The translations under genes were made by a program, and so were the position numbers. DNA of 64,000 bases, taken from contig JBAXKB010000004.1 in NCBI GenBank assembly GCA_037137575.1, positions 268 through 64,267 of the forward strand, written 5' to 3'. Source of the stretch: Actinomycetes bacterium (GTDB lineage: Bacteria > Actinomycetota > Actinomycetes > S36-B12 > UBA5976). Under the pieces are notes generated by a model that did no database searches, had not been told where the DNA came from, and saw only the letters and a program-made list of their open reading frames with translations. The first letter of the stretch is position 1. Each line of letters begins with the position of its first letter. Of this stretch, positions 5,592 through 59,911 are shown piece after piece.

Positions 5592-6746
5592 TTATCTCTG
5601 ACCCTGGAAAATCTTTGCAGTCCGGACGATGGCTTCAGTAATAATCTCTGGGCTTGTTGCAAAGTTGAGTCGCACATGGCCTCGACCTGTTGATCCAAAT
5701 ATTGTGCCCTCGCTGAATGCCACTTTTGCTAACTCAAGGATTTGGGCGGCAGGATTATCTGGTTGGTATGCAGACAGGTCAATCCAGGCTAAGTAGGTCG
5801 CATCCGGAACCCGGTATCTAGCTTCCGGCAGGTTTTCACTTAGTAGTTTGCCCACCAGTTTGCGATTCTCATCTAGCAGTGCCAGGGCACTTGCTAGCCA
5901 GTCTTCGCCTTCGTTGTATGCGGCCACACTGGCCCATGCGCCCAAGAGTGAAGACCCCATAGCGGTGATCTCTGGCAAGGTAGCAATTGTTCGAGCACGT
6001 GAGTCATCAGCAGTAATTATTTGAGCGCATTTCAAACCAGCTAGGTTCCAAGCTTTGCTAGCTGAGGTTACAACTACGCCAGTCCTTCTTGCCTGCTCGT
6101 TAACGCTTAGGTAAGGAGTGAATGATTTAGCGTATACAAGCGGAGAGTGAATTTCGTCGCTTAAAATTAAGACCCCATGTTCATCGGCAAGATCAGCTAA
6201 GTGGGTAAGTTCTAACCTGCTTGGCACATAGCCAACGGGGTTGTGTGGGTTGCAAAGTATGTAAGCCTTGAGTCCATCGGCGAAAGCTTTCTCAAGGCCG
6301 CCAAGATCTAGCGACCAGACTCCTTCGGTGTCGCACAAAAGTGGAATATCAAGCACCTGGCCGGCCGCGGCAGTTATCCAACTCGGCATGTTGTTGTAAT
6401 TGGGACTGCTTAGCCCAATTTGGTCACCGGGGTTTGCGAACTTGCCTAACACTTGGACACTGGCAAGAGCCACATCGGTGCTGAGGAAAAATTGACTTGG
6501 GTCAACCGCCCAATCCCAGTTGCGGGCGGCAAAGTTAGTAAATGCATCGGCAAGTTCCGGGACTATGCTGCTGTAGCCCAAATCGGAGGCATCAATCATC
6601 TCGTGCAATGTTCGCTTTATTGGTTCTGCTACTGGCAGATCCATCTCCGCTACGAATAATGGAAGCACATCTGGCGGGTAAGTGCGCCATTTCTTGCTCC
6701 GGCGCTTATGCAGTGCCTCAAGCGAATCGATGTTTATTTTCTGCAC
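5592..6746 (-). CDS. PLP-dependent class I/II aminotransferase, MalY/PatB-like C-S lyase
   Basis: Contains 'ILCNPHNPVG' and the PLP-lysine region 'TSASKAWNLAGLKCA', both typical of PatB/MalY cystathionine beta-lyase-like enzymes. Confidence 0.8.
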   Translation of the reverse strand: MQKINIDSLEALHKRRSKKWRTYPPDVLPLFVAEMDLPVAEPIKRTLHEMIDASDLGYSSIVPELADAFTNFAARNWDWAVDPSQFFLSTDVALASVQVLGKFANPGDQIGLSSPNYNNMPSWITAAAGQVLDIPLLCDTEGVWSLDLGGLEKAFADGLKAYILCNPHNPVGYVPSRLELTHLADLADEHGVLILSDEIHSPLVYAKSFTPYLSVNEQARRTGVVVTSASKAWNLAGLKCAQIITADDSRARTIATLPEITAMGSSLLGAWASVAAYNEGEDWLASALALLDENRKLVGKLLSENLPEARYRVPDATYLAWIDLSAYQPDNPAAQILELAKVAFSEGTIFGSTGRGHVRLNFATSPEIITEAIVRTAKIFQGQR

Positions 6747-11631: not shown

Positions 11632-12054
11632 TTAAGTAAGAAGCTTTTCTAGCGGTTCGCTACTAACTTTCCAACCGCGCAGTTGTGCTTGTCGCGCTGC
11701 ATCGCGTGCGTACTCTGGCGCATCTGAGGTGAGCACGACTGTTACTTCGGCATCGGGCCAGTCTCCGTATTCGCCCCCGATAGTTGGCATCTCTGGGTCT
11801 ACCAGGACATAACCAACCGCAGGGGAGCGAAGCGCTTTTCGACTAAAGCCCAAAGCCGGAGCGTGCACGCTTGCCGGTCCGAAAAATACTAAAACCAGTG
11901 CATCGGCAGTTCCAGCTAATTGCGCAGCAACATGGGTAACCCATCTGGTACCACTTTGTGGTGGGGTAACGACATAAGGCGCAGTCGGCAAGGCAAACGC
12001 GTGGGCATACGGATTCACGTCGGTCAGTGTTGGACAGAAAGCGATTGTTGCCAT
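11632..12054 (-). CDS. Hypothetical protein, divergently oriented to the heliorhodopsin gene
   Basis: 140-aa ORF with normal composition and no competing ORF. I recognise no motif confidently. Confidence 0.5.
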   Translation of the reverse strand: MATIAFCPTLTDVNPYAHAFALPTAPYVVTPPQSGTRWVTHVAAQLAGTADALVLVFFGPASVHAPALGFSRKALRSPAVGYVLVDPEMPTIGGEYGDWPDAEVTVVLTSDAPEYARDAARQAQLRGWKVSSEPLEKLLT

Positions 12055-12152
12055 GTCTCTACTGTGCCATGCCCGAGGATAAAGACGTTTGTTGCCACCG
12101 CCGAAACAGTAATTACCTCAGTAATTGCGTCCGAAGAAACTAAACTCCAAAT

Positions 12153-12917
12153 ATGAATTCAGATACCCAAGCCATCAAAAAATTACGCAGCTTTAACTTA
12201 ATTGCAGGCCTATTTCACTTGGCTCAGTTGATTGCTGTTTTAGCTCTTGCTAATGACTTTGCATTACCAGTGACCGCAAAATACATGTCAGGTCCACCTG
12301 GGACTACTTATGCAGAGCCGGTCACACTTTTTAGTACTAAGGTCGGCTTGGCTGTGGCTATCTTTCTGGCACTTTCGGCTGTTGCGCATTTTGTCGTCAT
12401 TAGTCCGCCCTTCTTCAACCGCTACAGCGATGGATTGTTAGCGAAACACAATTACTTCCGCTGGGTCGAGTACTCAATCAGTTCGTCGGTAATGATTGTG
12501 CTGATTGCAGAGATCTGTGGCATAACCGATGTCACTGCATTACTTGCAATCTTTGGCGTGAATGCATCAATGATTTTGTTTGGCTGGTTGCAGGAAAAAT
12601 ATGAGCAGCCAAAAAATGGCGGTTGGCTTCCATTTATATTCGGATGCATCGCAGGTATTGTGCCTTGGCTTGCGATTGCAATCTATGTGCTTGCGCCAGG
12701 CGCAACAGTTGCAAGCAAGCCACCAACATTTGTGTATGGCATCGTCTTCTCTCTTTTTGTTTTCTTTAACGTTTTTGCAGTTGTTCAGCTCTTGCAATAT
12801 CGCGGTAATGGCCGTTGGGCTAATTACCTAACTGGCGAGCGCACTTACATCGTGCTGAGTTTGGTAGCTAAATCTCTATTGGCTTGGCAAGTTTTCGCTG
12901 GAACCTTGGTTTCATAA
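12153..12917 (+). CDS. Heliorhodopsin (retinal-binding seven-transmembrane protein with inverted topology)
   Basis: Seven hydrophobic segments. A basic N-terminus (KKLR) before TM1 predicts an N-in topology. Lys240 lies in the last helix ('SLVAKSLLAWQ', codon 12870..12872). Glu106 lies in 'FRWVEYSISSS'. His22 ('GLFHLAQ') and His79 ('AVAHFVV') are present. Long blocks ('AVLALANDFALP', 'GPPGTT', 'SSSVMIVLIA', 'ALLAIFGVNASMILFGWLQEKY', 'FGCIAGIVPW', 'YIVLSLVAKS') match the prototype heliorhodopsin 48C12 as I recall it. Confidence 0.9.
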   Translation: MNSDTQAIKKLRSFNLIAGLFHLAQLIAVLALANDFALPVTAKYMSGPPGTTYAEPVTLFSTKVGLAVAIFLALSAVAHFVVISPPFFNRYSDGLLAKHNYFRWVEYSISSSVMIVLIAEICGITDVTALLAIFGVNASMILFGWLQEKYEQPKNGGWLPFIFGCIAGIVPWLAIAIYVLAPGATVASKPPTFVYGIVFSLFVFFNVFAVVQLLQYRGNGRWANYLTGERTYIVLSLVAKSLLAWQVFAGTLVS

Positions 12918-12980
12918 CTTAGATCCTTCGTTTATTAGGGCGGTTACCAAGTCTGCAGCCCTAAACAATAAGGTAGAGCC

Positions 12981-13514
12981 ATGTCAGATCGCGATGCATT
13001 ACGTCAGGAAATTCTCGATAAAGCTGTAGTCCACGGCAAAGTTATTTTGTCCAGTGGGAAAGAAGCTGATTATTATGTTGATCTTCGCCGAGTCACTTTA
13101 GATTCAACTGCGGCGCCACTTGTTGGCAAAGTTATGCTCGACCTACTTGCAGAGCTTGAGTTTGACGCTGTGGGTGGCTTAACGCTTGGCGCAGATCCAG
13201 TTGCCACTGCGATGTTGCATGCTGCGGCTAACCAAGGCCGTAAGTTAGATGCTTTTGTTGTGCGCAAAGCCGAGAAAGCACATGGACTTCAACGCCGTAT
13301 TGAAGGCCCAGATGTTGCTGGTCGCAATGTTGTTGCCGTGGAAGACACCAGCACAACAGGTGGGTCAGTTATGACCGCAGTTGAAGCACTTCGTGAAGCA
13401 GGCGCAAACGTTGTTGCAGTTGCCGTAATAGTTGAACGTGGAGCAGCGCCAATGATTGAAGCCGCCGAGTTGCCTTACTTCGCTGCCTACCAATTGAGCG
13501 ATCTTGGCCTTTAG
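12981..13514 (+). CDS. pyrE: Orotate phosphoribosyltransferase
   Basis: 'SGKEADYYVDLR' and the PRPP-binding loop 'VVAVEDTSTTGGS'. Confidence 0.92.
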   Translation: MSDRDALRQEILDKAVVHGKVILSSGKEADYYVDLRRVTLDSTAAPLVGKVMLDLLAELEFDAVGGLTLGADPVATAMLHAAANQGRKLDAFVVRKAEKAHGLQRRIEGPDVAGRNVVAVEDTSTTGGSVMTAVEALREAGANVVAVAVIVERGAAPMIEAAELPYFAAYQLSDLGL

Positions 13515-33867: not shown

Positions 33868-34110
33868 ATGAAACCAACTCTGATCTACACACTTTCCCGA
33901 CTTGCCCTGCTTGGACTTTGTCTGGGTCTTGGTTACTTGGCCAGCTTGCGCGGTGTCATCTTGTTGCTCGCAGCGTTTTTGGGATCAGGCTTATTGTCGT
34001 TTGTACTTTTAACAAAGCAGCGCACAGCGATGGGTGAAAAAATTGGGACAGCGTTATCTGCTGTGAACCAAAAAATTGAGGCAAATACGGGTAAGGAAGA
34101 TATCGATTAA
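33868..34110 (+). CDS. Small two-TM membrane protein (DUF4229-like)
   Basis: 80 aa with two hydrophobic helices and an acidic tail. It is convergent with menA and overlaps it by 4 nt. Confidence 0.55.
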   Translation: MKPTLIYTLSRLALLGLCLGLGYLASLRGVILLLAAFLGSGLLSFVLLTKQRTAMGEKIGTALSAVNQKIEANTGKEDID

Positions 34111-34988
34111 GAATTTGCTATTGCAAAACTAAGGATCAAGGAAAATACGAATAGGGTTTTTCCAGTTCCAGCTAAAACTGGAATCAGTGCCTTGCCTTGT
34201 GCGCCACTACGAATCACTTTGATTGGTTCAACCGCAATGAATCCAGCACTTACTGCTACCCAAGCAAGCGTTGGTCCCTTTTCAATAAGCGACATGGCGA
34301 TAGAAATTCCAATTCCGGCCATAACTGTAAGCACAAAAAGTGCGCGAGTTTTTGCATCACCTAAGCGCACAGCCAGTGTTTTTTTACCAGCAACAATATC
34401 GCTTGGAATATCTCGAACATTGTTGGCCAGCAAAATTGCAGTTGAAAGTAATCCGCATGAAACGCCGCCCAAAACAGATAGCACAGAAATATTCCCTGTT
34501 TGGCTGGCGCTAGTGCCAATCACTGCGACCAATCCAAAGTAAGTGAAGACAAAGACTTCGCCAAGGCCCAAGTAACCGTATGGCTTCGAGCCACCCGTAT
34601 AAAACCATGCGGCCAACATTGCCGACAGACCAACTGGTAGCAGAATCCAAAGTCCGCTGGCTGCAGCCATAATCAGTCCAGCTATTCCAGCAACTGTGAA
34701 ACTTAAAAATGCAGCTCGCTTTACTGCAGAAGGAGTTGCTAGTTTCTGCCCGACAAGGCGCACCGGACCAACTCGCACATCATCAGTGCCTCTTATTCCG
34801 TCGCTGTAATCATTAGCAAAGTTAACCCCGATTTGTAGCGCTAAGGCCACAACCAACGCACATAAGGCAATACCAATGCGAGCACTTCCGGCAAAGTCAG
34901 CGATTGCGGTACCGACAAGTACCGGCGCAATTGCCGCTGGCAGTGTGCGAGGACGTGTACCTGCGATCCATTGCGATCTCGTTGCCAT
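34107..34988 (-). CDS. menA: 1,4-dihydroxy-2-naphthoate polyprenyltransferase
   Basis: UbiA-family motifs 'NFANDYSDGIRG' and 'NNVRDIPSD' in a polytopic membrane protein. Confidence 0.92.
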   Translation of the reverse strand: MATRSQWIAGTRPRTLPAAIAPVLVGTAIADFAGSARIGIALCALVVALALQIGVNFANDYSDGIRGTDDVRVGPVRLVGQKLATPSAVKRAAFLSFTVAGIAGLIMAAASGLWILLPVGLSAMLAAWFYTGGSKPYGYLGLGEVFVFTYFGLVAVIGTSASQTGNISVLSVLGGVSCGLLSTAILLANNVRDIPSDIVAGKKTLAVRLGDAKTRALFVLTVMAGIGISIAMSLIEKGPTLAWVAVSAGFIAVEPIKVIRSGAQGKALIPVLAGTGKTLFVFSLILSFAIANS

Positions 34989-43955: not shown

Positions 43956-44324
43956 GTGGGACAAGGCGCGATTTACCTACCCATTCTGTTTTTAGGTCTG
44001 TTGGCTTTTGGCTTTGCTGCATTTTCGGTAGTGGCCGCCACATTTACTGGACCAAAACGATACAACCGAGCAAAAGTTGAAGCTTACGAATGTGGCATTC
44101 AACCAACTCCGCAACCTGAAGGTGGCGGCCGGTTCCCGGTGAAGTATTACTTAACTGCAATGTTGTTCATTATTTTTGATATTGAAATTGTTTTCCTTTA
44201 CCCATGGGCTGTCACGTGTGACAAACTTGGAGTTTTTGGGTTGGCCGAAATGGTGTTATTTATTGTCACAGTGTTAGCTGCGTACGCATTTGTTTGGCGT
44301 CGCGGCGGCCTCGAGTGGGATTAG
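43956..44324 (+). CDS. nuoA: NADH-quinone oxidoreductase subunit A
   Basis: 'YECGI' and 'FIIFDIEIVFLYPWA'. GTG start preceded by a GAGGG RBS. Confidence 0.95.
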   Translation: MGQGAIYLPILFLGLLAFGFAAFSVVAATFTGPKRYNRAKVEAYECGIQPTPQPEGGGRFPVKYYLTAMLFIIFDIEIVFLYPWAVTCDKLGVFGLAEMVLFIVTVLAAYAFVWRRGGLEWD

Positions 44325-44339
44325 TTAGGTGCACGAGTA

Positions 44340-44894
44340 ATGGGTATTGAAGAAAAATTACCAAGTGGAGTTCTACTCACAACTGTTGAAGGCTTAGCTG
44401 GATACGCACGTAAAAACTCGCTGTGGCCAGCAACCTTTGGACTAGCATGCTGCGCGATTGAAATGATGGCATCCGGTGCTGGCCGCTACGACTTAGCGCG
44501 GTTCGGTATGGAAGTTTTTCGAGCTTCACCACGCCAGGCTGACTTGATGATTGTGGCCGGTCGCGTAAGCCAAAAGATGGCGCCAATTGTTCGCCAGATC
44601 TACGATCAGATGGCAGCACCTAAATGGGTTTTGGCCATGGGGGCTTGCTCATCATCAGGCGGAATGTTCAATAACTACGCCATTATTCAGGGGGTAGATC
44701 ACATTGTGCCTGTTGACATCTACTTGCCAGGTTGCCCACCGAGACCAGAGATGCTGATCGATGCATTGCTGAAACTGCATGATCAAATTTCAGAGACAAA
44801 ACTTGGAACAAACCGCAAACGTCAGCTAGAAGATCTTGAGAATGCAGCGCTTATCGCAACCCCAACTATCGATCAGGTTGGGCTAATGCGATGA
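44340..44894 (+). CDS. nuoB: NADH-quinone oxidoreductase subunit B
   Basis: '[11 protein letters not shown]', 'MGACSSSGG' and 'LPGCPPRPE' (N2 cluster ligands). Confidence 0.97.
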
Positions 44895-45586
44895 ATGACG
44901 ATGTAGTAAAAGCGGGGTTGCCCCTACTTCAGGTAACCACTGTTCGCGAGGGCATGTTTGGCGCGAGTGGGTCGGGTGACACTTCAGGTTTCGGCGGTTT
45001 GGTTTCCGTAGTTCCAGTTCCAGTTGCATCTGCGCAACCGTTCGGAAATTACTTTGACGAAATTTATGCAGAGCTAGTTGCCGCGCTTCCACTTTTCAAG
45101 TCGTCAGCCGAAAAAGCATTCGACAAAATTGTTGTAGCGCATGACGAGATGACGATTTATGTTCACCCAACTGAACTTCTTGCCGTTGCTCGCACCTTGC
45201 GCGACGAACCAGGTCTTCGGTTCGAATTGTGCCTAGGCGTGAGCGGAGTTCACTACCCAAATCAAACTGGTGCTGAACTTCACGCGGTCTACCACTTCCG
45301 GTCGATCACACACAACCGCCGTGTTCGCTTAGAGGTTGTCGCTGCAGATTCACACCCGCACATTCCATCAATTGTTTCTATTTATCCAACGAACGATTGG
45401 CACGAGCGCGAAACCTTCGATTTCTTTGGCATCATCTTCGATGGCCATCCACACTTAACTCGCATTCAAATGCCAGACGATTGGCAAGGTCATCCGCAGC
45501 GTAAGGATTACCCACTTGGTGGAATTCCGGTTGAGTACAAAGGCGCAACAGTGCCAGCTCCAGATGAGCGGAGGTCATACAACTAA
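44891..45586 (+). CDS. nuoC: NADH-quinone oxidoreductase subunit C
   Basis: '[23 protein letters not shown]'. ATGA overlap with nuoB. Confidence 0.95.
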
Positions 45587-46905
45587 TGACTGATACATAC
45601 GCAGCGTCATACGACACAACTGAAGGTCGCGTCTTCACCGTTATGGGCCAAGACTGGGACACCATTACTGGTAACGCAGCTGGCGAAACCGAACGTATCG
45701 TGGTCAACATGGGTCCGCAACACCCATCAACTCACGGTGTGCTTCGCTTGATTCTGGAAATTGAAGGCGAAACCGTAACCGAAGCCCGATGTGGCATTGG
45801 TTATTTGCACACGGGCATTGAAAAGAACATGGAGTACCGACACTGGACTCAGGGCGTAACTTTTGTTACCCGCATGGACTACTTAAGCCCATTTTTTAAC
45901 GAAACTGCCTACTGCTTAGGCGTGGAAAAACTGCTCGGTATCACTGATCAAATTCCCGAACGCGCAAATGTAATTCGCGTGATGATGATGGAACTGAACC
46001 GAGTCTCGTCACACCTTGTTGCGTTGGCTACCGGCGGTATGGAACTAGGCGCATTAACGGCCATGATTTTTGGTTTCCGTGAACGCGAATCAGTTCTTGA
46101 CCTTTTTGAACTAGTAACTGGCCTTCGCATGAATAGTGCATACATTCGCCCCGGCGGTGTTGCCCAAGATTTGCCAGCTGGAGCTGAAGAAAAGATTCGC
46201 GAAACTATCAAGGCATTGCCGCGTCGTTTTAAAGACACCGCAGACATGTTGGTTGGCAACTCCATTTGGATGGGCCGCACTTCAGGTGTGGGCATTCTTG
46301 ACCTGGCTGGCTGTATGGCGCTTGGTGCAACAGGTCCGATTCTGCGTGCTACTGGATTGCCAGCAGACTTGCGTAAATCTGACCCATACTGCGGTTACGA
46401 AAATTACGAATTTGATGTCATCACTAAGGACACTTCAGATGCTTATGGCCGGTTCTTGATTCGTTTGGAAGAAATGGAACAGTCACTGAACATCGTTGAT
46501 CAGTGTCTTGATCGCTTAGCGCCGGGTCCAGTAATGGTGGAAGACAAAAAGATTGCTTGGCCGGCTCAGCTTTCAATCGGCAGCGATGGTCAAGGCAACT
46601 CTCTCGATCACATCCGCCACATCATGGGCGAAAGTATGGAAGCACTAATCCATCACTTCAAACTTGTAACTGAAGGATTCAACGTGCCAGCCGGTCAGGC
46701 TTATGTTGCCGTTGAATCACCACGTGGCGAACTTGGTGTGCATGTTGTTTCAGACGGTGGCACTCGTCCTTACCGCGTGCATTACCGCGATCCGTCATTT
46801 ACAAACTTGCAGGCAACTGCAGCGATGTGCGAAGGCTCGCAAATTGCTGACGTGATTGCGGCTGTTGCGTCAATCGACCCTGTCATGGGGGGAGTGGATC
46901 GCTAA
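45586..46905 (+). CDS. nuoD: NADH-quinone oxidoreductase subunit D
   Basis: '[15 protein letters not shown]', 'GYLHTGIEK' and '[11 protein letters not shown]'. Confidence 0.97.
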
Positions 46906-47553
46906 ATGTCACTAACCGAAGATACCCGAACTAAAGCGCGCGAAATCATTGCTCGCTATCCACATGCACGTTCAGCGCTGCTACCGATGCTGCACCTAGT
47001 GCAGGCGCAAGAAGGTTATGTAAGCGCCGATGGCATTGCACTTTGTGCTGAAGAACTGGCACTAACTACTGCTGAAGTTTCAGCAGTAGCGACTTTCTAC
47101 ACGATGTACCACAAGAAGCCAGTTGGCGAGTATCACATCGGTGTTTGCATCAACCCAGGTTGTGGCATTCTCGGTGGCGATGCGATTTGGTCAACTCTTT
47201 GCAGTCGCCTCGGTATTAGCAACGACGAAGTAACTGATGATGGCAAGATTTCGCTTGAGCGCATTGAATGCCAAGCAGCTTGCACTCATGCACCAGTAAT
47301 GACCGCTAACTGGGAATTCCTGGACAATATGACGCCAGAATCTGCTGTTGATGTTGTTGAAAAACTGCGTTCTGGCCAAGAAGTTCACAGCACGCGCGGA
47401 CCAAAGATTCCAACTTTCAAAGAAAACGAATTAGTTCTTGCCGGATTTGACGATGGCTTAGCTGGCGAGGGCGTACAGGCTGACGAGTACATGCTTGCTG
47501 GTTTGAATCGAGCTAAAGAATTAGGCCAAAGCGCGCCGGAGGTAAAGGCATGA
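46906..47553 (+). CDS. nuoE: NADH-quinone oxidoreductase subunit E
   Basis: 2Fe-2S ligands in 'GVCINPGC' and 'ECQAAC'. Confidence 0.95.
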   Translation: MSLTEDTRTKAREIIARYPHARSALLPMLHLVQAQEGYVSADGIALCAEELALTTAEVSAVATFYTMYHKKPVGEYHIGVCINPGCGILGGDAIWSTLCSRLGISNDEVTDDGKISLERIECQAACTHAPVMTANWEFLDNMTPESAVDVVEKLRSGQEVHSTRGPKIPTFKENELVLAGFDDGLAGEGVQADEYMLAGLNRAKELGQSAPEVKA

Positions 47554-48851
47554 CATTAACTCCAGTTCTATCCGCACATTGGGATGACGCAGATTCGTAC
47601 ACAATTTCGGGTTACATGCGCCACGGTGGATACACCGCATTTAAAAAAGCATTAACCACAGACCCTGATGAAATCATTTCGTTAGTTAAAGACTCAGGCT
47701 TACGGGGTCGCGGTGGCGCAGGTTTCCCAACTGGTTTGAAGTGGAGTTTTGTTCCACAAAACGATGGCAAGCCGCACTACTTAGTTATCAACGCCGACGA
47801 GTCTGAGCCAGGTGCTTGTAAAGATATTCCGTTGATGATGGCGAATCCACACTCGTTAATCGAAGGCATGATTATCGCGGCATTTGCAATGCGCGCAAAC
47901 CACGCTTTCATTTACATTCGTGGTGAAGTGCCACATGTTTTCCGCCGCGTAAACGCCGCAATTCGTGAGGCTTACACCGCTGGGTACCTTGGCAAGAACA
48001 TCATGGGCTCCGGATTTGATCTTGAAGTTGTGCTTCATGCTGGAGCGGGAGCATACATTTGTGGTGAAGAAACCGCGCTACTTGATTCACTTGAAGGCCG
48101 CCGTGGACAACCCCGTTTGAAGCCACCGTTTCCTGCAGTTGCCGGGCTTTATTCATCGCCATCATGCGTGAACAATGTTGAGACCATCGCAAACATTCCT
48201 TACATCTTTAACAACGGTGTCGATTGGTTCCGATCATTTGGCACCGAAAAATCACCAGGATTCAAGTTATTCGCAGTTTCGGGTCATGTGAATCGCCCTG
48301 GTATTTACGAGGCTCCGCTGGGTATCACTATGCGCGAACTTTTGGAACACGCAGGTGGCGTTCGTGCTGGACACAGTGTGAAGTTCTGGTTGCCAGGTGG
48401 CTCATCAGTACCGATGCTTACCCCTGAACATTTAGACACTCCACTGACTTACGAAGACATCGCTGCCGCAGGTTCAATGCTTGGCACTGGAACTCCGATG
48501 GTGTTCGACAACACAACATCAGTTGTGCGAGCAGTTACCGGCTGGCTTGCTTTCTACAAGCACGAATCATGTGGCAAGTGCACGCCATGTCGTGAAGGTA
48601 CTTACTGGATCAGCGATGTTTTGCATCGCCTTGAAGAAGGTCATGGAACCGAAGCAGACCTAGAAACTCTGGTTGAATTGTGTGCACAGATTGCTGGTCG
48701 ATCATTTTGCGCACTTGGTGACGCAGCAGCAACGCCGTTCCCCGCAGCGCTTAAGTATTTCCGCGATGAATTTGTGCAGGCAACTACAACGCCAGCTAAC
48801 GAGTCTTACGATCCAACCGCTGCCACCGTTTTCGCAGGAGCAAGCCGATGA
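47550..48851 (+). CDS. nuoF: NADH-quinone oxidoreductase subunit F
   Basis: '[16 protein letters not shown]' (FMN/NADH site), '[10 protein letters not shown]' and '[12 protein letters not shown]'. Confidence 0.97.
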
Positions 48852-51073
48852 CTGTTACAACTTCCACTGTCACTTGCACTGTTGACGGGGTAACTGTTGA
48901 AGTACCTGCTGGCACGCTAATCATTCGTGTGGCCGAAATGCTTGGCACCGCAATTCCACGTTTCTGTGATCACCCACTTCTAGACACAGTGGCAGCTTGT
49001 CGCATGTGCCTAGTTGAAATTGAAGGTCAGCCAAAGCCACAGCCATCTTGTGCGATTCCAGTAACCGAAGGCATGGTTGTCAAAACTCAGCACACCAGCG
49101 AAGTTGCCGCAGCTGCGCAGGCTGGCGTGATGGAGTTCTTGCTGATTAACCATCCACTTGATTGCCCGGTGTGTGACAAGGGTGGCGAATGTCCGCTACA
49201 GAATCAGGCAATGACAAGTGGTCGTAGCGAGACTCGATTCACTGGCGTAAAACGCACATTCCCGAAGCCAATCAATGTCAGCGCCCAGGTTCTTCTAGAC
49301 CGCGAACGTTGCGTTTCATGCGCGCGCTGTACTCGCTTTGCTGATCAAATTGCTGGCGATCCGTTCATTGAACTTCTAGAGCGTGGGGCAAAACAGCAGG
49401 TTGGCATCTCCGAAGATCAGCCGTTCGATTCTTACTTCTCTGGTAACACAATCCAGATTTGCCCGGTAGGCGCATTAACAAGTGCGAAGTACCGATTCCG
49501 TTCCCGTCCATTCGATTTAGTTAGCACTCCAACTGCTTGTGAACACTGCGCAAGTGGTTGTGCGCTTCGCACCGACGTGCGTCGCGGCACTGTTATGCGT
49601 CGCTTGGCGTGGGATGCTCCGGAAGTTAATGAAGAGTGGAACTGCGACAAGGGTCGCTTTGCCTTCCCTTACTTAACCCAAGCGCGAATCACGACTCCAC
49701 TTGTTCGCGACGAAGATGGAAATCTTGTTCCAGCATCTTGGCCAGAAGCAATTCGTGTTGCCGCAGCCGGCTTAGCTAAAACTGGCGCACAAACCGGTGT
49801 TCTTACTGGTGGCCGTTTAACTAATGAAGATGCTGGCGCATACGCAGCATTTGCGCGCGGAGTGCTTGGCACAAACGATGTAGATTTCCGCGCTCGCGCA
49901 GTGAGCGATGAAGAGACCGCGTTTTTGGCAAATCATGTTGCTGGACGCGGCTTGGATGTCACTTATGCCGATCTAGAAGCAGCGCCAGCGGTGTTATTGG
50001 TTGAGTTTGAACCGGAAGACGAGTCACCGATTGTTTTCTTGCGCCTTCGTAAAGCAGCGCGTACTCGGGGAACAAAGGTTTATTCGGTAGCACCGTATGC
50101 AACTACCGGCTTGGGCAAAGTTGGTGGCACGTTAATTGCAACTGCGCCACATGCAACTCCATCCGCCGTTGCTGGTTCAGCCAAATTAGTAGCCGAATCA
50201 GGCAGCGTTATTTTGGTCGGCGAACGCGCGGCCTCCACACCAGGACTACTTACTGCAGTTGCCGAGTTAGCAACAGCGACAGGTGCTCGCATCGGTTGGA
50301 TTCCTCGTCGCGCCGGCGATCGTGGCGCACTTGATGCTGGTCTGTTGCCAATTAATGGGCGCAATACTGAAGACATCATCGATGCAGTTGGCTCAGACAT
50401 TTCGGGCCTAGTAATCGCTGGCGTCGCAAGTGAAGATTTGATGGCGGACCTCGAAGGCGCAATTGAGCGCGCTGAGTTTGTTGTCTCACTTGAAACCCGG
50501 CACACCGATGTAACGGCAATTGCTGATGTAGTTTTCCCAGTGGCCACTGTGGTTGAAAAAGCTGGAACATTACGCAACTGGGAAGGTCGCGATCGCAGTT
50601 TCACCGCTGTGGCGCCTAAACAAGGTGTCATTAGTGACGCTGCGGTTCTTGGCGAAATCGCACAGGAACTGGGCGTTCAACTTTCGGTTACTGAAAACTT
50701 TTGGGCAACTGCTGATAAGCCGGCACTTTCTGGCGCAGCTGTGGGCGCACCAGTTCTTGAATCTGGCCAGGCTGAACTAAGTTCTTGGCGCCACTTGTTA
50801 GATAAGGGCACATTGCAAGATGGCGAGCCTTACTTAGCAGCCACTTCGCGTGTTGCTGTCATTCGGGTAAGTGCTGCCACTGCAAAGTCTCTTAGCTTGG
50901 TCGATGGGGAATTCGCAACTGTAGATTGCTCTGGAGTAACAGCAAGTGCGCGAGTCATCTTCACCCACGACATGGTTGATGGGGTTGTCTGGATGCCGGG
51001 AAATAGCGAAGGCACTTCACTAAATCTGCCGTCTGGCTTAGTCGTAACTGTTACCGCTGGAGGTCAATCGTGA
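48848..51073 (+). CDS. nuoG: NADH-quinone oxidoreductase subunit G
   Basis: 'PRFCDHP', 'CRMCLVE', '[17 protein letters not shown]' and '[10 protein letters not shown]'. Confidence 0.97.
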
Positions 51074-52404
51074 CATCGCTAGTTCGTGTGGGCCAAAGCG
51101 CAACTACCACTCAGTTTGGCACTGATCCGATTCTGATTATCTTGCTAAAGGTTGTCGGTATTTTCGCAATCATGGTGGTAATGACTCTTATGACGATTTG
51201 GGCTGAGCGTCGCGTGGTTGGTCGTATGCAGATGCGTATCGGTCCAAACCGAGTTGGTCCGTTTGGTTTACTGCAATCGCTGATGGATGGCATCAAACTT
51301 GCGCTCAAGGAAGAAATTATTCCCAAGACCGCTCACCTGGCCGTTTACTGCATCGCTCCAGTTATTTCAGCAACGACCGCGTTCTTAACATTCGCAGTTA
51401 TCCCACTTGGGCCAACAGTTTCCATGTTCGGACATCAAACACCGTTGCAGCTAACTGATTTCCCGGTTTCAGTTCTGTACGTGCTAGCGATTGCATCGAT
51501 AGGTATTTACGGAATCGTGCTTGCCGGTTGGGCATCTGGATCAACTTATCCACTACTTGGTGGTCTGCGTTCAAGTGCTCAGATGATTAGTTACGAAATT
51601 GCGATGGGCTTGTCCTTCGTGGCAGTGTTCCTCTACGCATCTTCGATGTCTACTTCGGTGATCGTAGAAAGTCAGCAGCATGTCTGGTACGGCGTTTTGC
51701 TATTGCCATCATTTGCGATTTATACGATTGCAATGGTTGGCGAAACTAACCGCGCACCATTTGACCTTCCAGAAGCTGAAGGTGAACTAGTTGGTGGTTT
51801 CCATACCGAGTACTCGTCACTCAAGTTCGCGCTATTCTTCCTAGCTGAGTACGTGAACATGGTGACGGTTTCAGCGATGGCAACCACATTGTTCCTTGGC
51901 GGCTGGCGCGCACCATGGCCAATTTCAGTTTGGTCTGGGGCAAACCAAGGCTGGTGGCCACTGCTTTGGTTCTTTGGAAAAATCTTCGCGTTCCTATTCG
52001 TTTTCATCTGGCTCCGCGGCACACTTCCACGCATGCGATACGACCAGTTCATGAAGTTCGGTTGGAAAGTTTTAATTCCAGTTTCAATTGTGTGGATTGT
52101 CATCGTGGCAACCGCTCGCGAATTACGCAATGCAAACATGCTAGATACGCGCATGCTGTTGTTCATTGCTAGCTCAGTGCTATTTGTTGGCGTAGTTATT
52201 TCGTACTACCTAGAAATTCGTGCCAAGAAGCGTGATTCGGTAATCGAGCACGAGCAGCGCCAACGCGAAGCCCGTGGTTTTGATCCATTTGAAGGTGGGT
52301 TCCCAGTTCCACCACTACCCGGGCAGAGCGCTCAACCATCTCGCTTGAGTTCAATAAAGGTCGCCCAAACACAAGATCCAGTAGCGCAAGTGGAAGGTCA
52401 GTAA
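51070..52404 (+). CDS. nuoH: NADH-quinone oxidoreductase subunit H
   Basis: '[25 protein letters not shown]' and '[25 protein letters not shown]'. GTGA overlap with nuoG. It has a long hydrophilic C-terminal tail. Confidence 0.96.
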
Positions 52405-52943
52405 TGCCACAGTTACCACAAGTGATTCGCGGATTTAGTGTCACGTTTTTCGCAATGTTCAAGAAAGTCACAACTGAGCAGTATCCAGAAGAGCGCGACA
52501 TCTACCCACCGAAGCCACGCTTTCATGGTCGTCACCAACTAAACCGTCATCCTGATGGTCTAGAAAAATGTATTGGCTGTGAACTTTGTGCTTGGGCTTG
52601 TCCTGCCGATGCCATTTTGGTTGAAGGCGCTGACAACACTGAAGAAGAGCGATTCTCGCCAGGCGAACGCTATGGCCGCATTTATCAAATCAACTATTTG
52701 CGTTGCATTTTGTGCGGGCTTTGCATCGAAGCTTGTCCGACGCGCGCGCTAACCATGACCAATGAATACGAGCTTGCCGATAATTCCCGCGAAAAACTCA
52801 TCTATGAAAAGGCTGACTTACTAGCGCCACTTTTGCCAGGTATGGAAGCTGCTCCGCATGAAATGGCAGTTGGCGCTACAGATACGGATTACTACCTTGG
52901 CAATGTGACTGGGGTAAATCAGCTAAAGGCGGTGACTGAGTAA
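52404..52943 (+). CDS. nuoI: NADH-quinone oxidoreductase subunit I
   Basis: Two CxxCxxCxxxCP motifs: '[12 protein letters not shown]' and '[12 protein letters not shown]'. Confidence 0.96.
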
Positions 52944-53668
52944 TGACTGGTGAAGTTGTAATTTTTTGGGTTACCGCAATTTTTTCGGTAGCCGGGGCAG
53001 TTGGCATGGTCATTTCACGCAAGGCAGTCCATAGCGCTCTATGGGTTGCCTTCACCATGATCAATCTTGCGGTGCTCTACTTCAGTCTCGGTGGCGCTTT
53101 TCTGGGCACAACCCAAATTGTTGTTTATACCGGTGCGGTAATGATGCTGTTCCTGTTCGTTTTGATGATTGTTGGTGTTGACTCATCAGATTCATTGATC
53201 GAAACCATCAAAGGGCAGCGGATTGTGGGCACTATTTTTGCATTTGCAATGGGCGCTCTTCTAACTTCAGCGATTACCACAACTGGCTTCTCAGCCGCTG
53301 CTGGTGTTGCTGGCGCCAATGAGGCAAGCGGTGGAAACATCGAGGGTTTGGCTCAACTAATTTTCGGCCGCTACTTACTTGCCTTTGAGGTAACTTCCGC
53401 ACTTTTGATTACTGCCGCACTTGGCGCAATGGTTTTGGCGCACAATGAACGCTGGACACCACGTAAAACTCAAGCGCAGTTGCAGCGCGAGCGCACACTT
53501 GCGGGTCATCCAACACCAATGCCAAGTCCCGGCGTGTTGGCGCTACATAACTCAGTTGATACCCCTGCTCTGTTGCCAGATGGTTCACCTTCGCAAGAGT
53601 CTTTGCCACGAATTTTCAAGTCGGTTCAACATCCTGATGATTCAACAAACAACGAGGTGACTTCATGA
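52943..53668 (+). CDS. nuoJ: NADH-quinone oxidoreductase subunit J
   Basis: Position in the operon, polytopic character, '[15 protein letters not shown]' and '[15 protein letters not shown]'. Confidence 0.92.
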
Positions 53669-53964
53669 ACCCGAACAACTATTTAGTTCTTGCCGGCATC
53701 TTGTTCACAATCGGCGCTTTTGGTGTGTTAGTTCGCCGCAACGCAATCATTGTTTTCATGAGTGTTGAAATGATGCTCAACGCTGCAAACCTGGCTTTTG
53801 TCGCGGCCTCACATATCACGGGAACTCTTGATGGCCAGGCGGCAGCTTTTTTCGTAATGGTTGTCGCTGCGGCTGAAGTCGTGGTTGGGCTTGCCATCAT
53901 TGTTGTGATTTTCCGTACCCGTCGCTCAGCTTCAATTGATGAAGCAAGTCTGTTGAAGTACTAG
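53665..53964 (+). CDS. nuoK: NADH-quinone oxidoreductase subunit K
   Basis: 99 aa with three TM helices: '[14 protein letters not shown]' and '[11 protein letters not shown]'. Confidence 0.95.
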
Positions 53965-53974
53965 GGGATTATTG

Positions 53975-55834
53975 ATGATTTCTGCACTCATTGGCTTGCC
54001 ATTATTTGGCGCGGCTTTACTGTTGCTCGGTGGCCGCCGGACAAATGCTTGGGGCCATTACTTCGCGGTCGCAATGTCGTCATCAGCATTTATCGTTGGT
54101 GTCACCCAGTTCATTGCGCTGCTTGGTAAGCCAGCAGAAGAGCGAAGCATTGATACAAAACTTTTTGATTGGATTTCAGTTGGCACGTTCCATGTGCCAT
54201 TTGGCTTACATTTGGATCAACTTTCAATGGTTTTCGTGCTACTTATTACTGGCGTTGGTTCGCTAATTCATGTTTACTCAATCGGTTACATGGCGCACGA
54301 TGAAAACCGCCGCCGATTCTTTGGTTACCTAAACCTTTTCGTAGCGGCGATGTTGCTGCTAGTTCTCGCCGATAATTACTTGCTGTTGTACGTAGGTTGG
54401 GAAGGCGTTGGTTTAGCCTCGTACCTACTTATCAGCTTCTACCAACACAAGCCATCTGCAGCAGTTGCTGGCAAGAAAGCATTCGTAGTCAATCGCGTTG
54501 GCGATGTTGGCTTGTCTGTTGCCATCATGTTGATGTTCGTTACTTTCAAAGATGTGACATTTAGCGGTGTTACTGCACATGCGCAGCATGCATCAGGGCA
54601 CAGCTTGACCCTCATCGGCTTGGCGCTGTTGCTAGCCGCTTGTGGAAAGAGTGCTCAGTTCCCATTGCAATCTTGGTTACTCGATGCGATGGAAGGCCCT
54701 ACTCCGGTATCGGCTCTGATTCACGCGGCAACCATGGTTACCGCCGGTGTTTATTTAATTGTTCGCGCACATGCGATCTTCGATCTTTCTGAAACTGCGC
54801 GCACTGCTGTCGTGGTTATCGGTGCAATCACACTATTGCTCGGTGCATTCATTGGTACTGCCAAAGACGACATTAAAAAAGGTCTGGCTGGTTCAACCAT
54901 GAGCCAGATCGGTTACATGATTTTGGCTGCTGGTCTAGGCCCAGTTGGTTATGTATTCGCTATCTTCCACTTGTTAACCCACGGCATGTTCAAAGCCGGA
55001 TTATTCCTTGGCGCTGGTTCAGTGATGCATGGTATGGAAGATGATGTAAACATGCGCAACTACGGCGCACTTCGTGGGGCCATGAAAATCACTTACATCT
55101 CATTTGGACTTGGTTTTCTAGCGATCATCGGTATTCCACCGTTCGCTGGTTTCTGGAGTAAGGATGAAATTATTCATGCTGCATTCTCACAGAACCTAGT
55201 TGTTGGCTTGGCTACTTTGTTAGGTGCGGGAGTTACCGCGTTCTACATGACCCGAATGATGGCCATGACATTCTTTGGTGAATCTCGTTGGAAGAAAGGT
55301 GTTCATCCACACGAGTCACCACTTGTTATGACTGCGCCAATGATTATTTTGGCCATTGGTTCAGTATTTGGCGGCTTGGCGCTTAAGTTCCTAGGCGACA
55401 TCGAGTTGTGGCTTGAGCCAGTTGTTGGAGTCGCAGCGCCAAAAGATCCGGCATCTAACGCTGTGTTAATTCCAGTCACACTTACCGTTGTGCTACTCGG
55501 CGCAGGATATGGCTGGCTTAAGTACGCCAAGACTCCAGTACCTGCACTGGCCCCAGAAAATGTTTCGTTACTAACCCGCGCAGCTCGCGCAGATGTATAT
55601 GGTGATGCATTGAACGAGGCGGTATTCATGCGCCCTGGTCAGTACCTGACTCGCGCGCTTGTTTGGTTTGATTCACGAGCGGTCGATGGCCTGGTCGGTG
55701 GCTTGAGCGCAACTGTCGGCGGCCTATCTGCTCGATTGCGCCGCACCCAAAATGGGCTTGTTCGTTCGTACGCGTTAACTATGGTTGGCGGCGCTGTCTT
55801 GATTGCTTTAGTTCTACTCTTAGTGAGGCTCTAA
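53975..55834 (+). CDS. nuoL: NADH-quinone oxidoreductase subunit L
   Basis: Antiporter-like '[15 protein letters not shown]', '[32 protein letters not shown]' and the long lateral helix region. The ATG at 53975 is 7 nt after AGGGG. A TTG at 53972 is one codon upstream. Confidence 0.95.
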
Positions 55835-55836
55835 CT

Positions 55837-57342
55837 ATGTTGTTAACCGGTTTGATGCTAACGCCGCTAGTTGGTGCGATTGCAGTTTTTGCGCTACCAG
55901 CCTCACGTACTTTGTTGGCAAAACAGATTGCCTTGTTTTTTGCAACTATCACCACAGCAGGCGCTGTTTATGTTGGCATTTCGCTCGATCCAAATGTTAA
56001 AGGGATGCAGTTCACCGAAAGTCATGCGTGGATTCCAACTTTCAGCATCAATTGGGCGCTTGGCGTAGACGGAATCGCAGCTGTTCTTATTGTGATGGCT
56101 ACGATTTTGGTGCCACTAGTAATCATCGCTAGTTGGAACGATGTTGAGCGTATTGGTCGCGGAACTGTAAAAGGTTACTTTGGCTTAATCCTGCTTCTTG
56201 AAACTTTTATGATCGGTGTTTTTGCTGCGACCGACTTGTTCTTGTTCTATGTGTTCTTTGAGGCCATGTTGATTCCGGTTTATTTCCTAATCGGTCGTTT
56301 TGGTGGGCCACAGCGCGCATATGCTGCGATGAAATTCTTGCTCTATTCACTTGTGGGTGGGCTGTTCATGTTGGCATCGCTCATCGGCTTGTTCATTGTT
56401 TCCATGCGAACCAGTGCCACGGGCGGAAGTTTTGATTTCCAAACTTTAGTTGATTTGAACATTGATCCAGCCACACAAAAAATGTTGTTCCTTGGCTTCT
56501 TCTTTGCATTCGCAGTTAAAGCTCCGATGGTGCCGTTCCATACTTGGTTGCCAGATGCTGCAGCGGAATCAACCCCAGGAACTGCAACCTTGCTTGTTGG
56601 GGTGCTAGACAAAGTTGGCACTTTTGGCATGCTGCACTTCTTGTTGCCGATTTTCCCTGATGCAAGCAAGTTCTACGCTCCAGTGATTATCACGCTTGCA
56701 GTGATCAGCATCTTCTACGGCGCATTGCTGGCCATTGGGCAGACCGACATGATGCGCCTCGTAGCTTTCTCTTCAATTTCCCACTTCGGCTTTATCGTGC
56801 TCGGTATTTTCGTATTCACATCACAAGGTCTATCTGGTTCAACTTTCTATATGGTGAATCACGGTTTCTCAACCGGCGCGTTGTTCTTGGTGGTGGGGTT
56901 CTTAGCAAGCCGCCGCGGCTCATCATTGATCGCTGACTTTGGTGGCGTGACTCGAGTAGCCCCAATTCTTTCCGGTGTTATTTTGCTCGCTGGCTTGTCC
57001 TCGCTTGCGCTTCCAGGTATGTCTAGTTTCGTCTCGGAGTTCCTAGTTCTGTTAGGAACATTTAGCGTGTATCAGTGGGTAGCAGTGGTTGCCACGACCG
57101 GCATTGTGTTGGCGGCGTTCTACATTCTTTGGATGTATCAGCGCGTAGTAACCGGCGAGCCATCCCAAGAAGTGCGCGACACGGTTACCGAAATTTCTAC
57201 TCGTGAATTGGTCGCTATTGCGCCAATCATTGCGTTAATCATTTTGCTTGGGGTGTTCCCTCAGACAGCCTTGCGAATAATCAATCCAGCGGTGCAACAA
57301 GTATCGAATGTCTTGGAATCGGGTAATGGGGGTCAAGGATAA
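55837..57342 (+). CDS. nuoM: NADH-quinone oxidoreductase subunit M
   Basis: 'FEAMLIPVYFLIG' and 'KAPMVPFHTWLPDAAAESTPGTA'. Confidence 0.95.
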   Translation: MLLTGLMLTPLVGAIAVFALPASRTLLAKQIALFFATITTAGAVYVGISLDPNVKGMQFTESHAWIPTFSINWALGVDGIAAVLIVMATILVPLVIIASWNDVERIGRGTVKGYFGLILLLETFMIGVFAATDLFLFYVFFEAMLIPVYFLIGRFGGPQRAYAAMKFLLYSLVGGLFMLASLIGLFIVSMRTSATGGSFDFQTLVDLNIDPATQKMLFLGFFFAFAVKAPMVPFHTWLPDAAAESTPGTATLLVGVLDKVGTFGMLHFLLPIFPDASKFYAPVIITLAVISIFYGALLAIGQTDMMRLVAFSSISHFGFIVLGIFVFTSQGLSGSTFYMVNHGFSTGALFLVVGFLASRRGSSLIADFGGVTRVAPILSGVILLAGLSSLALPGMSSFVSEFLVLLGTFSVYQWVAVVATTGIVLAAFYILWMYQRVVTGEPSQEVRDTVTEISTRELVAIAPIIALIILLGVFPQTALRIINPAVQQVSNVLESGNGGQG

Positions 57343-58936: not shown

Positions 58937-59911
58937 GTGACTGTTTTCCCAGAAGAGCTAGCAACACTTGAGGCAGATTTGTCTGTCCGACTAGTTGCCG
59001 TGGAAGATTTGTTACGCAGCGAAATTGCCAGTGATTATGCCTTGGCAGACATCACGGCTCGTCACTTAGTTGAAGCCGGCGGAAAGCGATTTCGCCCACT
59101 ACTTGTGCTGCTAGCTGCGCAATTTGGTAATCCAGATTCACCGGGCGTTATTCCTGCTGCGGTTGTCGTTGAACTTACCCATCTAGCGACGCTGTATCAC
59201 GACGATGTTATGGACGAAGCAGACGTTCGACGCGGCGCACAGTCAGCTAATAGTCGTTGGGGTAATACAGTTGCAATTTTGAGTGGGGATTTCTTATTCG
59301 CCCGGTCCTCAAAAATTCTGGCAGATTTAGGGCCAGAGGCAGTACGTGTGCAAGCACAAACGTTCGAACGTTTAGTCGTTGGCCAACTTCGCGAAAGTGT
59401 TGGACCGCAAGCCGGCGAAAACGCCGTTGCTCATCACCTGCAGGTTTTGGCGGATAAGACTGGCTCGCTTATTGCAGCTGCTGGTCGTTATGGCGCCATG
59501 ATGAGTGGGGTAGACGCAGAAACAACCGATGCAATTGCCGAGTTTGGCGAATGTGTCGGCGTAGTTTTCCAACTTAGCGATGACTTATTAGATATTGAAT
59601 CTGAAGTTTCAGGCAAAACACCGGGCACTGATTTGCGAGAAGGCATTAAAACTTTGCCCGCGCTCTTGGCTTTGCAGGATGAAACCACCACACAGGAATT
59701 ACGCGATTTGTTATCGCGCCCGTTGCCTAATGATGCCGACCATCTACGGGCGCTAACTTTACTGCGCGAGCATCCTGCAATGCGTGCTGCCCGCGATGTC
59801 TTGAATGAGTGGGCAGATCGGGCCCGCGACCTGTTACAGAAACTGCCAGACACGCAGGCTCGCTCGGCCCTGAATGTGCTCATTGACAACGTGAGTGATC
59901 GAAAAATCTAG
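58937..59911 (+). CDS. Polyprenyl diphosphate synthase (GrcC1/HepT-like, for the menaquinone side chain)
   Basis: First and second Asp-rich motifs, 'LYHDDVMDEAD' and 'QLSDDLLD', plus 'GKRFRP'. Confidence 0.9.
   Translation: MTVFPEELATLEADLSVRLVAVEDLLRSEIASDYALADITARHLVEAGGKRFRPLLVLLAAQFGNPDSPGVIPAAVVVELTHLATLYHDDVMDEADVRRGAQSANSRWGNTVAILSGDFLFARSSKILADLGPEAVRVQAQTFERLVVGQLRESVGPQAGENAVAHHLQVLADKTGSLIAAAGRYGAMMSGVDAETTDAIAEFGECVGVVFQLSDDLLDIESEVSGKTPGTDLREGIKTLPALLALQDETTTQELRDLLSRPLPNDADHLRALTLLREHPAMRAARDVLNEWADRARDLLQKLPDTQARSALNVLIDNVSDRKI

Follow-up and report, generated by a model that had tools for sequence, protein, structure and literature searches.

Heliorhodopsins are best known from 48C12, the prototype of subfamily 1, which was recovered from a Lake Kinneret actinobacterial fosmid (PDB 6SU3, 6SU4, 6UH3, 9LJJ), transports no ions and completes a photocycle lasting seconds (PMC7049168). 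Regulation of partner proteins by heliorhodopsins has been described for glutamine synthetase (PMC9529153) and for an ABC transporter (PMC11109279), and regulation of a photolyase has also been reported (PMC9769723). Hypotheses on what these proteins do have been drawn mainly from the genes next to theirs. Here, a heliorhodopsin gene was analysed in a stretch of 64,000 nucleotides (nt) of an Actinomycetes bacterium (assembly GCA_037137575.1, contig JBAXKB010000004.1, positions 268 to 64,267 of the forward strand), which as a whole is called the window. Judged by its sequence, the open reading frame (ORF) at 12153..12917 is a bona fide and orthodox subfamily-1 heliorhodopsin. It lies between pyrE and a divergent gene for a 140-amino-acid protein, designated u140, and these two constitute an older divergent backbone pair that holds a heliorhodopsin between them in only some lineages. 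The explanation that best accommodates the whole, to which we give a probability of roughly 0.6, is that this protein would be a slow, non-pumping sensor or regulator whose partner is not encoded next door, and that its gene would be an accessory insert with a promoter of its own.

The coding sequence and its principal residues are as follows.

12153..12917, plus strand: heliorhodopsin coding sequence, 254 amino acids, ATG start, subfamily 1 (48C12-like), from the ORF list, the Pfam match and the PDB match.
12216..12218, plus strand: codon CAC of His22, Schiff-base cavity (H23 of 48C12), from the DNA and the alignment, role from PMC7049168.
12387..12389, plus strand: codon CAT of His79, Schiff-base cavity (H80 of 48C12), from the DNA and the alignment, role from PMC7049168.
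12468..12470, plus strand: codon GAG of Glu106, predicted Schiff-base counterion (E107 of 48C12), from the DNA and the alignment, invariant among 20 relatives, role from PMC7049168.
12870..12872, plus strand: codon AAA of Lys240, predicted retinal Schiff-base lysine (K241 of 48C12), from the DNA and the alignment, invariant among 20 relatives.

The subfamily-1 assignment follows from the family hidden Markov model, the alignment to 48C12, the functional residues and the distribution of lysines and arginines. The Pfam model Heliorhodopsin (PF18761) matched over its full length (profile positions 1-242 of 242) with 338.9 bits against a cut-off of 26.7 (E=1.9e-101), whereas the type-1 rhodopsin model PF01036 reached 16.3 bits, under its cut-off of 24.6. 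Residues 6-253 aligned to residues 7-254 of the crystallised 48C12 chain (6su3/6uh3/9ljj; E about 4e-113), with 171 of 248 residues identical (69%). An earlier note on this DNA, made from the letters alone, had identified the gene as a heliorhodopsin, with His22, His79, Glu106 and Lys240 each offset by -1 relative to 48C12, and both the identity and the offset held when the codons were read and aligned. Its further statement that long blocks are nearly identical to 48C12 was fair, if somewhat generous for a gap-free alignment of 69% identity.

The positions used for the functional comparison were drawn from PMC7049168, PMC9529153 and bioRxiv 10.1101/2025.11.27.691015, and at all 43 of them the window protein carries the residue of 48C12. 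They cover the Schiff-base lysine, the glutamate counterion with its stabilising serines, the histidine pair, other cavity residues, the hydrophobic barrier, the Glu149 region, polar clusters, subfamily-1 discriminators and six fenestration residues. In 48C12 numbering, the cavity comprises H23, H80, N101, Y108, N16, E230, R104 and Y92, the hydrophobic barrier L12, L96 and L227, and the E149 region E149, Q216, Y226, W105 and Q213 (PMC7049168); the cavity, the barrier, the E149 region and the polar clusters were found identical at the 48C12 number minus 1. The subfamily discriminators I142, A168, P172, L202 and Q213, listed in PMC9529153, are likewise identical. Lys240, Glu106 and Ser236 align with K241, E107 and S237 of 48C12, and Ser236, like the other two, is invariant among the 20 relatives.

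With type-1 rhodopsins such as bacteriorhodopsin and actinorhodopsin (PF01036), the protein shares seven helices, seen here as seven hydrophobic segments on a Kyte-Doolittle plot, and the retinal-binding lysine of the last helix. However, it differs from them in the sub-threshold PF01036 score, in Ser236 instead of aspartate four residues before the lysine, in the lack of an RYxDW motif and in an orientation that the charges predict to be opposite. The motifs KKLR (residues 9-12), FRWVEYSISSS and SLVAKSLLAWQ, singled out in the earlier note, are all present. An AlphaFold2 (AF2) model showed seven long helices and a beta-hairpin between helices A and B, at low confidence (pLDDT 55, 20-sequence alignment). 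It served for helix boundaries only and carries less weight than the gap-free alignment with the crystal structure. With loops delimited in this way, the predicted cytoplasmic side (N-terminus, BC, DE and FG loops) holds 11 lysines and arginines and the outer side (AB, CD and EF loops, C-terminus) 3. This count, together with the gap-free alignment to a crystal structure of known orientation, supports the proposed inverted topology and fits a predicted cytoplasmic N-terminus and an outside C-terminus.

The resemblance to 48C12 extends to the length class, the long AB loop and the freshwater actinobacterial host. In contrast, the 77 substitutions between the two proteins fall mostly in loops (BC loop 10 of 20 positions, N-terminus 5 of 8, EF loop 8 of 15, as against 20% in helices), so that partner specificity is not transferable from 48C12. 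The two also belong to separate clades of a neighbour-joining tree. There are thousands of heliorhodopsin relatives, and among the matches listed, those at 68-94% identity came from freshwater actinobacterial metagenome-assembled genomes (MAGs). The identical protein occurs, with the same gene order, on 21 lake-metagenome contigs from several lakes. Heliorhodopsins occur in monoderm hosts, and such a host is indicated here by the actinobacterial synteny dnaK-grpE-dnaJ-hspR and by the nearest DnaK relatives, which are from Actinomycetes MAGs. Thus, the family, the subfamily, a 69%-identical crystal structure and, in public metagenomes, the exact sequence are already known, and the gene, as an orthodox relative of the best-studied heliorhodopsin, adds little new by itself.

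By analogy with 48C12, Lys240 would bind all-trans retinal as a protonated Schiff base, for which Glu106 would provide the counterion, and Ser75, Ser110 and Ser236 would stabilise this centre. His22, His79, Asn100, Tyr107, Glu229 and Arg103 would line a water-filled cytoplasmic cavity in which the Schiff-base proton could be taken up temporarily, and the protein would return to its initial state over seconds without net ion transport (PMC7049168). Since every checked pocket residue equals that of 48C12, the protein is expected to absorb green light near 550 nm, to complete its photocycle over seconds and to carry out no net ion transport. Its most likely role would then be that of a slow light sensor or regulator whose cytoplasmic loops act on a partner, either soluble or in the membrane, and this partner would be encoded elsewhere and not next door. 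The best available model for such signalling is AbHeR of Actinobacteria bacterium IMCC26103, a subfamily-1 heliorhodopsin which also comes from a freshwater actinobacterial host and whose cytoplasmic loops touch the soluble enzyme glutamine synthetase (PMC9529153). Light-dependent regulation of a partner through cytoplasmic loops is the best-supported output for actinobacterial heliorhodopsins, and it is the reading adopted for this protein with moderate confidence. However, the genes of the glutamine-synthetase-regulating group lie directly downstream of glutamine synthetase and NAD synthetase genes in one operon, whereas the 64-kb window contains neither gene and has the divergent u140 upstream. 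Moreover, the loop-3 lysines K216, K217 and K220, which are important in AbHeR for the binding of glutamine synthetase, would correspond to Arg217, Gly218 and Arg221 here, on a mapping deduced from the -2/-1 numbering offsets.

It has also been proposed for the 48C12 subfamily that the protein is a light-dependent enzyme that binds small planar anions, and a primarily light-harvesting role may be considered as well, in which an external xanthophyll bound at the lateral fenestration would provide a second antenna. The residues concerned are all in place: F161, C165, G168, F205, N206 and A209 equal F162, C166, G169, F206, N207 and A210 of 48C12, as named in the preprint cited above, and the Schiff-base cavity residues (PMC7049168) are fully conserved. 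The conserved fenestration would also permit the binding of an external carotenoid, and retinal itself would have to be made by genes at other places in the genome or be obtained from the cell's surroundings. By Pfam annotation, the 64-kb window contains no carotenoid or retinal-synthesis gene, crt and blh included, as the earlier note had stated, and no type-1 rhodopsin, glutamine synthetase (Gln-synt) or NAD_synthase gene; the lack of a carotenoid gene is compatible with an external supply. However, in the part of the preprint drawn on here, carotenoid binding rests on sequence analysis, AlphaFold3 modelling and docking, and an antenna alone does not specify what the output is, so that it is compatible with a sensor as well. 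For 48C12, no enzymatic activity has been demonstrated in the literature consulted here (PMC7049168). The repeated absence of the gene among close relatives, described below, is no less in keeping with an accessory sensor than with a core energy system. A primarily light-harvesting or catalytic protein is therefore an unlikely description of this heliorhodopsin, if one deserving to be kept in mind.

The locus was also examined for what its neighbours could reveal. The backbone genes on either side of the heliorhodopsin are the following.

11632..12054, minus strand: u140, divergent 140-amino-acid soluble protein, without a Pfam hit, described from an AF2 model.
12981..13514, plus strand: pyrE, 177 amino acids, of orotate phosphoribosyltransferase type by Pfam Pribosyltran; the name is based on size, family and context.

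The surroundings are, as the earlier note had put it, those of housekeeping genes. The order is dnaK-grpE-dnaJ-hspR-SDR on the plus strand, u140 on the minus strand, the heliorhodopsin gene and pyrE on the plus strand, dedA on the minus strand, and then fba, a nitrobindin-like gene, fur, a GcvT-like gene and further genes. The divergent u140 starts 98 nt from the heliorhodopsin, and the latter is separated from pyrE by the 63 nt given in the earlier note (12918..12980). The u140 model was of good quality (pLDDT 86, pTM 0.84) and displayed a minimal alpha/beta-hydrolase-like fold with weak matches to carboxylesterase folds (best E 0.025). Pfam returned no family for u140 and its remote relatives, apart from one faint sub-threshold Ser_hydrolase hit. 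The u140 family is small, with 97 close clusters, all labelled hypothetical, and about 143 remote representatives, and its invariant residues include H41, S71, D86, D98, W99 and D101.

A scan starting from the heliorhodopsin considered one genome per GTDB species and the best 80 loci, individual loci being denoted by L numbers. The arrangement SDR / u140 / heliorhodopsin / pyrE was present in 3 of these 80 (L007, L008, L009), and the other 77 displayed varied recurring contexts. One was panB / NAD synthase / glutamine synthetase / heliorhodopsin, the published AbHeR type (for example L011, L014, L019, L023, L040, L044, L060 and L063), and the closest relative of 48C12 in the scan (L053) likewise has glutamine synthetase upstream, unlike the window gene. 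Another included a gene for a spermidine-synthase-like protein. A second scan started from u140 and covered 60 metagenome loci and three further family members, with 48 loci informative for the 5′ side. Wherever the 3′ flank was seen, u140 was convergent with the SDR-hspR-dnaJ-grpE-dnaK block, with or without a heliorhodopsin. On the 5′ side stood a heliorhodopsin followed by pyrE in 10 loci, pyrE directly in 14 and other genes, such as groEL, in 24, so that 38 of the 48 lacked an adjacent heliorhodopsin. The direct u140-pyrE spacer measured 34-123 nt in all loci examined, and u140 beside pyrE without a heliorhodopsin was found in L087-L092, L099/L100, L103/L104, L107, L111, L113-L115, L123, L132, L134, L145, L149 and L155. 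A specific co-occurrence of pyrE or the divergent ORF with the heliorhodopsin, which the earlier note had suggested tabulating, was thus not what these counts displayed. The context u140, heliorhodopsin, pyrE is not among the ten neighbour groups of PMC11109279 nor among other published neighbour groups, and these results indicate that it is incidental.

Some contexts encountered in these scans are recorded in their own right. In seven loci (L016, L018, L021, L022, L032, L038, L078), a fusion of about 570 amino acids between a UbiA prenyltransferase and an alpha/beta hydrolase overlapped the heliorhodopsin start by 4 nt, which suggests translational coupling, and a peptidase S51 gene was often next. 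Six others, from one group of related genomes (L036, L047, L051, L062, L081, L083; heliorhodopsin at about 6001..6738), carried a zinc alcohol dehydrogenase gene on one side; the other side was occupied by genes for a nickel superoxide dismutase and a SodX-like S26/S24 peptidase, a context that agrees with published indications of a connection to oxidative stress. In L037, L048, L059, L075, L080, L082 and L086, the gene of a photolyase-related protein (Pfam DPRP) was next to the heliorhodopsin or one gene off. In the distant MAGs L010 and L012, a heliorhodopsin of 76% identity stood amid low-identity homologues of asparaginase II, nitrobindin-like, GcvT-like and fur genes, the counterparts of which lie 2.6-6 kb downstream of the heliorhodopsin in the window; one chromosomal region may host heliorhodopsins in different arrangements. 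A small minus-strand ORF between SDR and heliorhodopsin in L024, L052 and L065, designated c26, was considered as a distant u140 homologue, in which case SDR, small ORF and heliorhodopsin would have constituted a wider module, and found to be unrelated (best BLAST E 0.14). In the heliorhodopsin-less lineage L090..L092, a DUF6186 gene and a family-less ORF of 198 amino acids are inserted between u140 and SDR, and the u140 flanks therefore tolerate insertions on both sides.

Leaderless mRNAs of actinobacteria are characteristically marked by a -10 element of the form TANNNT, situated about 6-7 nt ahead of the start codon. The following elements were found around the heliorhodopsin gene.

12059..12071, plus strand: 13-nt element CTACTGTGCCATG, adjoining the u140 start codon, invariant in five orthologues.
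12107..12130, plus strand: 12-nt tandem repeat CAGTAATTACCT/CAGTAATTGCGT with the palindrome AATTAC-N4-GTAATT, 23-46 nt upstream of the heliorhodopsin ATG, from a sequence scan.
12141..12146, plus strand: TAAACT, putative -10 hexamer of the heliorhodopsin promoter, ending 6 nt before the ATG, from a motif script and orthologues.
12935..12964, plus strand: weak inverted repeat TTAGGGC-N16-GCCCTAA in the spacer between heliorhodopsin and pyrE, read from the DNA.
12969..12974, plus strand: TAAGGT, putative -10 hexamer of a leaderless pyrE promoter, ending 6 nt before the ATG, from a motif script and orthologues.

The earlier note had rightly observed that no Shine-Dalgarno sequence precedes the heliorhodopsin ATG, but this is no oddity: its absence is explained by the leaderless-mRNA signature, a TANNNT hexamer, 6 nt and ATG, which is the usual actinobacterial arrangement. 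A TANNNT ending exactly 6 nt before the start was present in 8 of 69 window genes, against a background of 0.68% (P=2.5e-8), at the starts 6746 (minus strand), 12153, 12981, 14302 (minus), 22455 (minus), 23297 (minus), 33868 and 61240, which suggests that leaderless mRNAs are common in the host genome. Orthologues carried TAAACT, TAGACT or TAATTT upstream of the heliorhodopsin at +6 or +7, and T87, A88 and T92 of the hexamer were invariant across five of them. Before pyrE, TAGGCT or TAGGGT followed by 6 nt and ATG was conserved in loci with and without a heliorhodopsin alike. It is therefore probable, on these motifs, that the heliorhodopsin is transcribed from its own promoter as a leaderless mRNA, and pyrE probably keeps a leaderless promoter of its own. 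A sigma-70 consensus scan around the heliorhodopsin start found nothing above the shuffle expectation, and a literature search returned no paper joining heliorhodopsin with leaderless transcripts. The tandem repeat CAGTAATTACCT/CAGTAATTGCGT is conserved in part in L095 and in L098; it could be a chance match or an operator that covers the -35 region. The element CTACTGTGCCATG is unique in the window, had no Rfam match and was nearly invariant in heliorhodopsin-less loci too, while other spacer sequence varied. The inverted repeat TTAGGGC-N16-GCCCTAA was tried as a terminator and rejected, having a fold z-score of -0.97 against shuffled sequence and no T-tract.

These observations bear on a second alternative, in which the heliorhodopsin and pyrE would form a functional pair: both would be co-transcribed, and the illuminated heliorhodopsin would bind orotate phosphoribosyltransferase, or u140, and tune pyrimidine synthesis, in the manner of AbHeR and glutamine synthetase. 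The two genes share a strand and are separated by a spacer of 59-156 nt kept in 10 of 10 clade loci. As no terminator-like site and no significant hairpin were found in the spacer, read-through into pyrE is possible. Regulation of an adjacent enzyme has precedent (PMC9529153, PMC11109279), and such a pair would lie outside the ten groups of PMC11109279, a literature search having found no paper on a heliorhodopsin and orotate phosphoribosyltransferase. However, u140 stands beside pyrE without a heliorhodopsin both in outgroups and in nested close relatives, the pyrE signature is conserved regardless of the heliorhodopsin, and pyrE lies near a heliorhodopsin in only 3 of the 80 best related loci. 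In addition, PyrE is about 94% identical to that of the window in both the heliorhodopsin-less L100 and the heliorhodopsin-bearing L102, with no partner-specific divergence visible. A functional pair is thus quite improbable. The stronger version, in which the heliorhodopsin would have been recruited as a light switch of nucleotide metabolism by read-through co-transcription, its product binding orotate phosphoribosyltransferase or u140, would constitute a new class of heliorhodopsin-enzyme pair. It is disfavoured because the u140-pyrE pair predates the heliorhodopsin, pyrE has its own promoter signature and the heliorhodopsin is repeatedly absent without change in PyrE, and we consider it very improbable.

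The history of the site is consistent with an accessory insert. In a neighbour-joining tree, the heliorhodopsins of the pyrE site formed one clade, and 48C12 fell elsewhere, next to a locus with glutamine synthetase upstream. A backbone tree was built from concatenated u140, PyrE and SDR proteins. In it, the clade formed by the window, L007 and L098 included the heliorhodopsin-less L100 (bootstrap 94), and L115, also without a heliorhodopsin, lay beside the heliorhodopsin-bearing L146 (bootstrap 84) within a clade of bootstrap 100; monophyly of the carriers alone received 0% support. A third heliorhodopsin-less locus, L155 (ENA GROS21-1 scaffold_2, 527 kb), is 96.6% identical in nucleotides to the heliorhodopsin-bearing L095 over the u140 region and about 90% over pyrE, a contrast that hints at a recombination mosaic. 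The gene is therefore missing at the site in at least three nested lineages (L100, L115, L155). The simplest reading is one acquisition at the site, followed by vertical descent in one clade of uncultured freshwater Actinomycetes and by no fewer than three later absences. Allele replacement by recombination may account for some of the latter, since the 84-nt empty spacers of L100 and L155 are alike. In this way, the heliorhodopsin would be an accessory insert between the divergent backbone genes u140 and pyrE, inherited vertically in one clade.

The ratio of nonsynonymous to synonymous substitution rates (dN/dS) of the heliorhodopsin was 0.020 and 0.046 against orthologues, at a dS of about 1.0-1.4, which is similar to hspR and SDR. 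The gene is under strong purifying selection; it is accessory, not decaying. Although it is missing from the site in those nested lineages, a functionless remnant on its way to loss is hardly credible, the reading frame being intact and full length with all functional residues kept, the protein recurring unchanged on the 21 contigs from several lakes and the selection analysis (dN/dS 0.02-0.05) contradicting it.

Several points weigh against the explanation preferred here, namely a slow sensor or regulator encoded by a separately transcribed accessory insert. The transcription starts are deduced from a motif, and with no terminator after the heliorhodopsin, it may be co-transcribed with pyrE. 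Because several of the heliorhodopsin-less contigs are short, a gene absent from the site may have moved elsewhere in the genome instead of having been lost. The functional mechanism is transferred from a homologue of 69% identity, from which half of the cytoplasmic BC loop differs, and the output of subfamily-1 heliorhodopsins is itself disputed between sensor, enzyme and carotenoid-assisted light harvester.

Regarding the rest of the window, it comprises genes for proline metabolism, cytochrome c maturation, menaquinone synthesis and a complete nuo operon, and an Rfam scan of all of it found tRNA-Tyr only. Its only two isoprenoid genes, a polyprenyl synthase gene at 58937..59911, just after nuoN, and a menA-like gene of the UbiA prenyltransferase family at 34107..34988, stand among menaquinone and nuo genes. 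The nuoA-N operon extends over 43956..58910 and is followed by the polyprenyl synthase gene and by a gene for a 349-amino-acid protein without a family, after which a second, small cluster of nuoB-like, nuoC-like and ferredoxin-like genes occupies 61240..62524.

As a dispensable insert that is probably transcribed separately, this heliorhodopsin has neighbours that say little about its function. What appears as a neat tandem of heliorhodopsin and pyrE is an accessory gene set between a pair of older housekeeping genes, both of which have promoter signatures of their own, and the locus illustrates how inference from neighbouring genes can mislead in this family. At the same time, close lake Actinomycetes that differ by one gene at one site, such as L095 with and L155 without the heliorhodopsin, or L146 with and L115 without it, provide a natural experiment, and whole-genome comparison or light/dark competition of such pairs could reveal the genes and traits that travel with heliorhodopsin.

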